Part shown: piece by piece, positions 3,061 through 5,250 of the stretch
Layout of the letters: every line of letters starts with the position of its first letter
Numbering within the stretch: position 1 is the first letter of the stretch
DNA from: Escherichia coli
GTDB lineage: Bacteria; Pseudomonadota; Gammaproteobacteria; Enterobacterales; Enterobacteriaceae
Length of the DNA stretch: 5,353 bases
Assembly (NCBI RefSeq): GCF_003334815.1
Contig: NZ_QOWO01000073.1
Reading direction: 5' to 3' (one strand)
Position numbers and translations under genes: made by a program
The notes under the pieces: generated by a model
What the model was told of the DNA's origin: nothing
Databases searched by the model: none
The model's input: the letters and a program-made list of their open reading frames with translations, nothing else

Positions 3061-5250
3061 ATGTTTGTGGAGCATAACCTGATAAAAAATATCAAGATAT
3101 TCACACTAGCGTTTACGCTCACCGTGGTACTTATTCAGCTATCCCGTTTTATTTCGCCACTTGCCATTATCCATTCCAGTTATATCTTTCTGGCGTGGAT
3201 GCCACTGTGCGTAATGCTGTCAATCTTGTTTATCTTTGGCTGGCGCGGTGTCGTTCCCGTTTTATGCGGGATGTTTTGCACCAATCTGTGGAACTTTCAT
3301 CTCTCTTTTTTACAGACTGCGGTCATGCTCGGTAGCCAGACGTTTGTCGTGTTGTGTGCCTGCGCAATATTACGCTGGCAGCTGGGGACGCGTTGGCGTT
3401 ATGGATTGACCAGCCGATATGTCTGGCAACGTCTGTTCTGGCTTGGTTTGGTGACGCCGATCGGCATCAAATGCAGCATGTATCTTGTGGGGAGCTTCTT
3501 TGATTTCCCGCTAAAGATATCCACCTTTTTCGGCGATGCGGATGCCATTTTCACGGTCGTTGATTTGCTAAGCCTTTTCACCGCTGTGCTGATTTACAAC
3601 ATGCTTTTCTACTATCTCACTCGCATGATTGTAAGTCCCCACTTTGCGCAGATATTGTGGCGCAGGGATATCGCTCCGTCGTTGGGCAAAGAGAAACGCG
3701 CATTTACCTTAAGCTGGCTGGCAGCGTTAAGCGTGCTGCTACTTCTGTTGTGCACACCTTATGAAAACGACTTTATTGCCGGTTACCTGGTACCCGTTTT
3801 CTTCATCATCTTTACCCTCGGGGTCGGTAAGCTTCGCTATCCGTTTTTAAATCTCACCTGGGCTGTTTCAACGCTTTGCCTTCTGAATTACAACCAGAAC
3901 TTTTTGCAAGGGGTGGAAACCGAATATTCGCTGGCATTTATTCTTGCGGTGCTGATTTCCTTTAGCGTTTGCCTGCTCTATATGGTGCGCATTTATCATC
4001 GCAGTGAATGGCTTAATCGCCGCTGGCATTTGCAGGCGCTGACAGATCCGTTAACGCTCCTACCCAACTTTCGTGCGTTGGAACAAGCGCCGGAGCAAGA
4101 GGCGGGCAAGAGTTTTTGCTGCCTGCGCATTGATAATCTTGAGTTTATGAGTCGTCATTACGGCTTAATGATGCGCGTTCACTGTATCCGCTCAATTTGC
4201 CGTACGCTGCTGCCGTTGATGCAGGAAAACGAAAAGTTGTATCAATTGCCGGGTAGTGAACTGCTGTTAGTGCTGAGCGGGCCGGAAACGGAAGGGCGAC
4301 TCCAGCATATGGTTAACATCCTGAATAGTCGGCAAATTCACTGGAACAATACCGGGCTGGATATGGGCTATGGTGCTGCCTGGGGGCGTTTTGATGGAAA
4401 TCAGGAAACCCTGCAACCCTTGTTGGGGCAGTTAAGCTGGCTGGCGGAGCAATCCTGCGCACATCATCATGTGCTGGCGCTGGATAGCAGAGAGGAGATG
4501 GTTTCCGGGCAGACCACTAAACAGGTGCTATTGCTGAATACCATTCGCACGGCGTTAGATCAGGGTGATTTGCTGCTCTACGCCCAGCCAATTCGCAACA
4601 AAGAGGGTGAAGGTTATGATGAGATCCTCGCGCGACTGAAATATGACGGCGGCATTATGACCCCGGATAAGTTTCTGCCCCTTATTGCTCAGTTTAACCT
4701 TAGCGCGCGTTTTGATTTGCAAGTGCTGGAATCCTTGTTGAAGTGGCTGGCAACACACCCTTGCGACAAAAAAGGACCGCGCTTTTCAGTCAATTTAATG
4801 CCGCTCACGCTGCTGCAAAAGAATATTGCCGGGCGGATTATTCGTCTGTTTAAGCGTTATCACATCTCCCCGCAGGCGGTCATTCTTGAGATCACCGAGG
4901 AGCAGGCGTTTTCTAACGCAGAAAGCAGCATGTACAACATCGAGCAGCTGCATAAGTTTGGTTTCCGGATTGCGATTGATGACTTTGGCACCGGATATGC
5001 CAACTACGAACGGTTAAAGCGTTTGCAGGCTGATATCATCAAAATTGATGGCGTCTTTGTGAAAGATATTGTCACGAACACGCTGGATGCGATGATTGTG
5101 AGATCAATTACCGATCTGGCGAAAGCGAAGTCATTGAGTGTGGTCGCGGAGTTTGTCGAGACGCAACAGCAGCAGGCGCTATTGCATAAGCTCGGGGTGC
5201 AATATCTGCAAGGGTATTTGATTGGTCGCCCGCAGCCATTAGCTGATTAA
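3061..5250 (+). CDS. pdeA: c-di-GMP phosphodiesterase with MASE1 membrane domain, degenerate GGDEF domain and EAL domain, 729 aa (ORF open upstream to GTG 2944)
   Basis: N-terminal ~300 aa is hydrophobic with multiple predicted transmembrane segments (MASE1-like). Middle region begins with a GGDEF-domain-type TDPLTLLPNFRAL segment, but the GGDEF signature position reads PGSEL (4249..4263). C-terminal EAL domain carries EILAR (4621..4635), NLMP, EITEE, DDFGTGYA, KIDG, AEFVE and QGYLIGRP, i.e. the catalytic/metal-binding residues appear retained. Start taken at ATG 3061 to match the 729-aa length I recall for YfeA/PdeA; TAA stop at 5248..5250. Confidence 0.9.
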   Translation: MFVEHNLIKNIKIFTLAFTLTVVLIQLSRFISPLAIIHSSYIFLAWMPLCVMLSILFIFGWRGVVPVLCGMFCTNLWNFHLSFLQTAVMLGSQTFVVLCACAILRWQLGTRWRYGLTSRYVWQRLFWLGLVTPIGIKCSMYLVGSFFDFPLKISTFFGDADAIFTVVDLLSLFTAVLIYNMLFYYLTRMIVSPHFAQILWRRDIAPSLGKEKRAFTLSWLAALSVLLLLLCTPYENDFIAGYLVPVFFIIFTLGVGKLRYPFLNLTWAVSTLCLLNYNQNFLQGVETEYSLAFILAVLISFSVCLLYMVRIYHRSEWLNRRWHLQALTDPLTLLPNFRALEQAPEQEAGKSFCCLRIDNLEFMSRHYGLMMRVHCIRSICRTLLPLMQENEKLYQLPGSELLLVLSGPETEGRLQHMVNILNSRQIHWNNTGLDMGYGAAWGRFDGNQETLQPLLGQLSWLAEQSCAHHHVLALDSREEMVSGQTTKQVLLLNTIRTALDQGDLLLYAQPIRNKEGEGYDEILARLKYDGGIMTPDKFLPLIAQFNLSARFDLQVLESLLKWLATHPCDKKGPRFSVNLMPLTLLQKNIAGRIIRLFKRYHISPQAVILEITEEQAFSNAESSMYNIEQLHKFGFRIAIDDFGTGYANYERLKRLQADIIKIDGVFVKDIVTNTLDAMIVRSITDLAKAKSLSVVAEFVETQQQQALLHKLGVQYLQGYLIGRPQPLAD

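Follow-up and report, generated by a model that had tools for sequence, protein, structure and literature searches.

The stretch studied here, positions 4249-5250 of a 5353-base segment of Escherichia coli DNA (contig NZ_QOWO01000073.1; the whole segment is called the window below), is the 3' 1 kb of the E. coli K-12 gene pdeA (yfeA, b2395). Our results make it very probable that PdeA is an inner-membrane phosphodiesterase (PDE) specific for cyclic di-GMP (c-di-GMP), with the architecture MASE1-degenerate GGDEF-EAL, in which the EAL domain is active and the GGDEF-like domain acts as a coupler. As the full set of metal-binding, substrate-binding and catalytic residues is kept in the EAL domain, hydrolysis of c-di-GMP is its most likely activity; the GGDEF-like domain has retained its fold and lost its cyclase chemistry.

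Identity and domain architecture of PdeA

By blastn, the window aligned with NC_000913.3 (2515540-2521006, reverse strand) as two collinear blocks that are 100% identical, between which one 115-bp tRNA-Ala unit is absent; this is the sole difference between the window and that genome. The coding sequence of pdeA lies on the plus strand from the annotated start, ATG 3061, to 5250 and comprises 729 codons plus the stop; its product (NP_416896.4) is identical to PdeA of MG1655. The gene belongs to the PdeA/YfeA orthologue group, and its neighbours gltX, yfeD, yfeC, tRNA-Ala and IS186C match the context of b2395. With a threshold of at least 90% identity, pdeA was found in every complete E. coli genome searched (5426/5426). 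The open reading frame derived mechanically is longer than the annotated gene and begins at GTG 2944. Upstream of the annotated ATG, the pdeA frame is open for 39 codons (window 2944-3060), an in-frame extension that is probably not translated.

A preliminary description of this DNA had named the gene PdeA and assigned it a MASE1 domain, a degenerate GGDEF domain and an EAL domain. Pfam and the existing annotation bear out both the name and the architecture, which is also the one given for PdeA by Pfiffer et al. 2019 (PMC6510439). The interval it singled out, 4249-5250, opens exactly with the codon of P397 and closes with the last base of the stop codon. It takes in the second half of the GGDEF-like domain and the entire EAL domain, but leaves out MASE1, the start of the GGDEF-like domain (~4036) and that of the gene (3061).

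The MASE1 integral-membrane sensor domain covers residues 16-315 (3106-4005, plus strand) and matched PF05231 over practically its full length (E = 3.9e-67, model positions 2-298 of 299). An AlphaFold2 model, based on 25 orthologues, shows a bundle of long helices in this region (residues 4-326). These orthologues share 54-99% identity and come from Escherichia, Citrobacter, Salmonella, Enterobacter, Lelliottia, Leclercia and Kosakonia. The degenerate GGDEF-like domain (4036-4485, plus strand) matched PF00990 only in part (residues 326-423, model positions 1-109 of 161, E = 7.4e-4), and its fold is predicted to reach approximately residue 475, beyond the end of the Pfam match at residue 423. 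The EAL domain (residues 493-724; 4537-5232, plus strand) is a full-length match to PF00563 (E = 2.7e-59, model positions 2-236 of 236), and among PDB sequences it matched MucR, RbdA, MorA, PA3825, RocR, YahA and DosP. No equivalog model of NCBIfam was passed by PdeA, the best being DibA with 138 bits against a cut-off of 980. Every motif quoted in the preliminary description was present at its given place in the translated 729-residue protein, and since these motifs lie inside the strong EAL match (E = 2.7e-59) and the weak, partial GGDEF match, they are not chance occurrences.

The GGDEF-like domain keeps its fold and has lost the cyclase residues

At the position of the GG[D/E]EF signature PdeA reads PGSEL (residues 397-401; 4249-4263, plus strand), as had been proposed by inspection and as was confirmed here by two pairwise alignments and one multiple alignment. 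In the phmmer alignments 'lyqlPGSELllvl' lies over 'larlGGDEFgill' of RbdA/PA0861 (5xgb) and over 'varlGGDEFiill' of PA0575 (5m3c). MAFFT, run in two modes on a set that included DgcZ, DosC, PdeR, PdeF, RbdA and PA0575, placed PGSEL in the GG[D/E]EF column, where PdeF has SGNDL. The Pseudomonas aeruginosa sequences in this multiple alignment, and in that of the EAL domain described below, were transcribed from printed PDB alignments. When the GGDEF-like region was compared alone (residues 316-500) with PDB sequences no GGDEF match was obtained, only a chance ribosomal protein (E = 0.9). The GGDEF alignment was derived from longer GGDEF-EAL phmmer queries and from MAFFT, as the isolated region is too diverged.

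The replacements extend beyond the signature. The two metal-binding positions (D and [D/E]) are occupied by R356 and S399, and the six A-site positions K, N, D, H, D and R by E361, S364, R365, L369, V373 and Q395, so that, of the published A-site consensus (KNDHDR plus GG[D/E]EF), nothing but the second G and the E survives in PdeA. In the GGDEF fold, the A-site and metal positions include guanine-contact, phosphate-contact and metal-ligand residues. The RxxD inhibitory site (I-site), an optional feature, is absent too: residues Q388-E-N-E391 of PdeA lie under REGD of RbdA. Because the signature, the metal ligands and the residues of both the A-site and the I-site are lost, PdeA is predicted to be unable to make c-di-GMP. 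The earlier judgement that cyclase activity is unlikely, based on the signature, thus gains from the replacement of both metal positions and of all six A-site residues.

The fold, on the other hand, is still that of a GGDEF domain, as indicated by the partial Pfam match, by the model and by structural comparison. The AlphaFold2 model has a mean predicted local distance difference test (pLDDT) score of 76, with most of the GGDEF-like region between 70 and 92; there the order of strands and helices is the one expected for GGDEF, and PGSEL sits in the beta2-beta3 hairpin, formed by strands 392-395 and 400-405. In a Foldseek search against the PDB the top match was RbdA (5xge; E = 8e-21, ~438 aligned columns), and the best matches were all GGDEF-EAL tandems (among them 5xge, 5m3c and 4rnh, and the proteins RbdA, PA0575, MorA, DosP and LapD).

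The presence of a GGDEF-type fold is one of two points in favour of PdeA being a bifunctional diguanylate cyclase (DGC)/phosphodiesterase with a working GGDEF domain, the other being the product name that the NCBI Prokaryotic Genome Annotation Pipeline (PGAP) places on most E. coli records. Set against these are the PGSEL signature, the replacement of both metal ligands (by R356 and S399) and of all six A-site residues, a Pfam match that covers just the first 109 of the 161 GGDEF model positions (E = 7e-4), and the failure of the domain alone to match any GGDEF chain of the PDB by sequence. We consider a bifunctional PdeA extremely improbable, and rejected the PGAP label as a generic name that is contradicted by the residue analysis.

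At the signature position the orthologues fit PG[S/N/C]E[L/M], with P397, G398 and E400 invariant, and 108 of 111 full-length database homologues fit PG.E[LM]. The replacements at GGDEF positions are themselves conserved among the orthologues, NLEFLSRHYG and RVH being examples. Compared with E. coli PdeA, the orthologues are on average 55% identical in MASE1, 63% in the GGDEF-like domain and 70% in EAL. Given this conservation, the dead cyclase domain is under constraint, and such constraint would fit a structural or regulatory role.

What that role may be was weighed among several possibilities. Degenerate GGDEF domains adjoining EAL domains can be GTP sensors, and by analogy the degenerate domain of PdeA could still bind GTP and activate the EAL domain allosterically, as in PdeA of Caulobacter crescentus (CC3396). 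The 63% identity of the domain among orthologues and the invariance of P397, G398 and E400 would suit such a sensor. Its binding site would, however, have to work with the six KNDHDR residues and both metal positions replaced, in a domain whose C-terminal half no longer matches the Pfam model. As the A-site consensus residues are replaced and the replacements are conserved, GTP-dependent activation of the Caulobacter type is unlikely; we regard a GTP-binding activator as very doubtful in PdeA, and the GGDEF-like domain probably does not bind GTP, judging from its residues. A GTP-binding role, which the preliminary description had put forward for assay, is hence not favoured: the A-site consensus residues are replaced, save the second G and the E.

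The same conservation allows a different proposal, in which the GGDEF-like domain in the PdeA/YfeA group has taken on a new function, binding a non-GTP ligand or a partner protein, and so relays a periplasmic signal, sensed by MASE1, to the EAL active site. This idea derives from the fact that the GGDEF-like domain is more conserved than MASE1 and holds P397, G398 and E400 invariant. We offer it as a speculative possibility that is unlikely as it stands; if true, E. coli PdeA would be a defined small-molecule-gated PDE. The role that we find most likely for the GGDEF-like domain is that of a coupler, both structural and allosteric, which links the membrane sensor MASE1 with the EAL domain.

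The EAL domain keeps a complete catalytic set

To examine the EAL domain we aligned nine sequences with MAFFT: PdeA, the E. coli proteins PdeL/YahA, PdeH, PdeF, PdeR and DosP, and the P. aeruginosa proteins MucR, RbdA and MorA. The columns invariant in all nine include Q509, P510, E521, L523, N578, E610, E613, D640, D641, F642, G645, K661, E697, E700 and Q717. This comparison upholds the earlier claim that no catalytic residue has been lost, and all the catalytic residues of the EAL domain, E610 and E613 among them, are also invariant in the 25 orthologues, as are Q509, P510, L523 and T612.

The name motif reads EILAR (ExLxR; residues 521-525; 4621-4635, plus strand), with E521 as metal ligand and R525 as substrate contact. 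It aligned with EALLR, EVLVR and ELLLR of the eight other PDEs; E521 is invariant, and R525 faces R in 8/9 sequences, counting PdeA, with V in PdeH. The orthologues have E[I/V]L as name motif, within a wider E[I/V]L[A/T/S]R. One phmmer alignment, with MucR (5m1t), had placed D520 under the E of EAL. We rejected this as an ungapped one-residue shift, an artefact of the loop that follows, which is shorter by one residue in PdeA; it is overruled by the nine-sequence MAFFT alignment and by those with RbdA, MorA and PA0575, all of which set E521 and R525 on ExLxR. That PdeA has EIL in place of EAL had been pointed out before. The motif is indeed there, yet it is not peculiar to PdeA: EIL, EVL and ELL occur in several E. 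coli PDEs, which makes EIL unremarkable. According to Table 1 of PMC3484386, EIL is found in YoaD and YfgF (PdeF), EVL in YahA, Rtn and YhjK, and ELL in YhjH.

Further along the domain, all on the plus strand, the metal ligand N578 (codon 4792-4794) lies in SVNLMP, of which NLMP forms residues 578-581 (4792-4803), and it is followed by EITEE (residues 610-614, with E610, T612 and E613; 4888-4902). Next comes DDFGTGYA (residues 640-647, with D640, D641 and loop 6; 4978-5001); the loop conforms to the DFG(T/A)GYS-like pattern, with DDFGTGYAN in PdeA against DDFGTGYAT in PdeL, and reads DDFG[T/S]GYAN in 25/25 orthologues. The catalytic K661 (codon 5041-5043) opens KIDG (residues 661-664; 5041-5052), and Q717 (codon 5209-5211) opens QGYLIGRP (residues 717-724; 5209-5232); like N578, both are invariant in the nine EAL sequences and in the orthologues. 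Between them lies AEFVE (residues 696-700, with E697 and E700; 5146-5160), which has F for the G of the usual EGVE. This AEFVE for AEGVE is the only departure from the usual EAL consensus and is common to the active enzyme RbdA; the third position is F or Y among the orthologues. The preliminary description had listed 'E of AEFVE' as kept, which is true of E697 and E700 alike, both being invariant, though which of the two was meant is ambiguous. We take E697 to be the counterpart of E352 in RocR. The published 'ENEEDKEQ' set is present in full, as N578, E610, E613, D640, D641, K661, E697 and Q717, all of them invariant.

Proposed mechanism and published evidence

The comparisons above establish the identity of the gene, its domain architecture, the conservation of its residues and the fold; from these we infer the enzymatic activity of PdeA and the coupling role of its central domain. 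The EAL domain would hydrolyse c-di-GMP to pGpG by the standard two-metal site, built from E521, N578, E610, D640, D641 and E697, with K661, E613 and Q717 in support, and MASE1 would set this activity by way of the GGDEF-like module, itself catalytically dead.

That yfeA encodes PGSEL, EIL and a complete EAL set is already known; this reading at the level of residues was published in 2012, and to that extent our finding is an ordinary one. Table 1 of Spurbeck et al. 2012 (mBio, PMC3484386) lists yfeA with MASE1, a GGDEF metal site 'RS', an A site 'ESRLVQPGSEL' and the string 'ENEEDKEQ', next to an A-site consensus of KNDHDRGG[D/E]EF. Our alignment reproduced these assignments independently. 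The earlier prediction that PdeA is an active PDE whose cyclase domain is inactive is supported by our residue comparison and agrees with that table, with PMC3718329 and PMC6510439, and with the Salmonella genetics in PMC9509341. Beyond this confirmation our analysis matters little, and the sequence itself adds nothing on the biochemistry of PdeA or on the input signal of MASE1. The class of PdeA was reportedly fixed by the Pde/Dgc nomenclature of 2015.

Several observations weigh against an active PDE. No in vitro assay carried out directly on the E. coli protein turned up in the accessible literature, the RefSeq reference annotation still reads 'putative cyclic di-GMP phosphodiesterase PdeA', and the PGAP label on most E. 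coli records is 'bifunctional diguanylate cyclase/phosphodiesterase'. Parts of the EAL domain, loop 6 among them (residues 643-650, pLDDT <50), are modelled by AlphaFold2 with low confidence. Sarenko et al. 2017 reported heavy proteolysis of PdeA in vivo and suggested its replacement by PdeF under anaerobiosis. In strain CFT073, deletion of yfeA lowered biofilm formation, and a foreign PDE and a foreign DGC each complemented the mutant; because both did so, the authors drew no conclusion on the activity of YfeA. The same deletion had no motility phenotype.

Some of these data would suit an EAL domain that, despite its complete active site, serves chiefly as a receptor for c-di-GMP, or 'trigger', and exerts its effect by protein contacts instead of bulk hydrolysis. 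Trigger enzymes such as PdeR are present in E. coli and provide a precedent in the same organism, the levels of PdeA are low and the protein is unstable, and in CFT073 motility was unaffected and the biofilm defect cannot be assigned to PDE activity. Nevertheless, no catalytic residue varies among the orthologues, which are 54-99% identical, as selection for catalysis would give, and in Salmonella a measured fall in c-di-GMP depends on YfeA. We therefore hold a trigger function of PdeA to be quite unlikely, and hydrolysis of c-di-GMP by the EAL domain stays the best explanation.

Surroundings of pdeA in the window

Upstream of pdeA the window contains a tRNA-Val gene at 2-77 (minus strand), gltX at 336-1751, yfeD and yfeC on the minus strand between gltX and tRNA-Ala, and a single tRNA-Ala(GGC) gene at 2777-2852. 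The latter has a strong promoter-like site ahead of it (TTGACA-17-TATGAT, 2716-2744) and, behind it, a hairpin that resembles a terminator (2860-2883). MG1655 and every E. coli genome sampled among the matches listed carry two tandem copies, alaX and alaW; in the window a 115-bp unit is missing exactly and all else is 100% identical. The single copy could be due to recombinational collapse in the source strain or to collapse during assembly. The tRNA-Val(UAC) gene at 2-77 matches valU collinearly, and the only match for base 1 of the window is in the flank of valX and valY, which hints that the valU-valX-valY array may differ in the source as well, or that the start of the window falls inside a repeat. 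Downstream, the last 78 bases of the window (5276-5353) are the end of IS186C (NC_000913.3 2514273-2515617), which starts 25 bp past the pdeA stop codon.

In some E. coli strains an IS5 or IS1 element splits pdeA, and its two parts carry annotations of their own, as a MASE1 protein and an EAL protein. A Shigella flexneri protein cluster of 314 members is a 440-aa truncation with MASE1 only, and another cluster, with 275 members, is the 445-aa C-terminal piece. The gene appears to have been inactivated repeatedly in some lineages.

Comparison with known systems

The protein studied here is the 729-aa PdeA of E. coli K-12 in the same context (gltX, yfeD, yfeC, tRNA-Ala, pdeA, IS186C). The gene does not differ, and the only distinction lies upstream, with one tRNA-Ala in the window against two (alaX and alaW) in the reference.

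Caulobacter crescentus PdeA (CC3396) shares its name with E. coli PdeA and is not an orthologue of it. CC3396 is a soluble PAS protein with a degenerate GGDEF-like domain that binds GTP and an active EAL domain; the structure 3u2e, which we take to be that of the CC3396 EAL domain, is among the PDB and Foldseek matches of PdeA. In E. coli PdeA, by contrast, the A-site consensus residues are replaced, so that its residues would not place it among the GTP-activated EAL PDEs of the CC3396 type, in which the GTP-contact residues are kept.

The best structural match over the GGDEF-EAL tandem is P. aeruginosa RbdA (PA0861; 5xgb/5xge), which shares the unusual AEFVET motif and whose ELLLR aligns with E521 and R525 of PdeA. 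It differs in having an intact GGDEF signature and a PAS input instead of MASE1, and is ~26% identical to PdeA. Closer in design is the E. coli paralogue PdeF (YfgF), with the same MASE1-degenerate GGDEF-EAL architecture, a degenerate SGNDL in the column of PGSEL and the same EIL. However, PdeF is just 30% identical to PdeA and is induced anaerobically, and its MASE1 modulates aspartate responses, an effect that expression of YfeA does not have.

Finally, YfeA of Salmonella Typhimurium (STM2410) is an orthologue that is 69% identical along its entire length and has the same architecture and catalytic residues and the same PGSEL-type and EIL motifs; it has been described as a phosphodiesterase. 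Stern et al. 2022 (PMC9509341) found that Salmonella YfeA is required for the decrease in c-di-GMP and in aggregation caused by external 5-oxoproline, and proposed that its MASE1 senses 5-oxoproline directly or via a periplasmic binding protein. By analogy, the periplasmic signal relayed in E. coli PdeA might also be 5-oxoproline. The response itself is known for Salmonella, and MASE1 is the least conserved domain of the PdeA group (55% mean identity); the Salmonella result nonetheless supplies a concrete hypothesis for the signal perceived by the MASE1 domain of PdeA.

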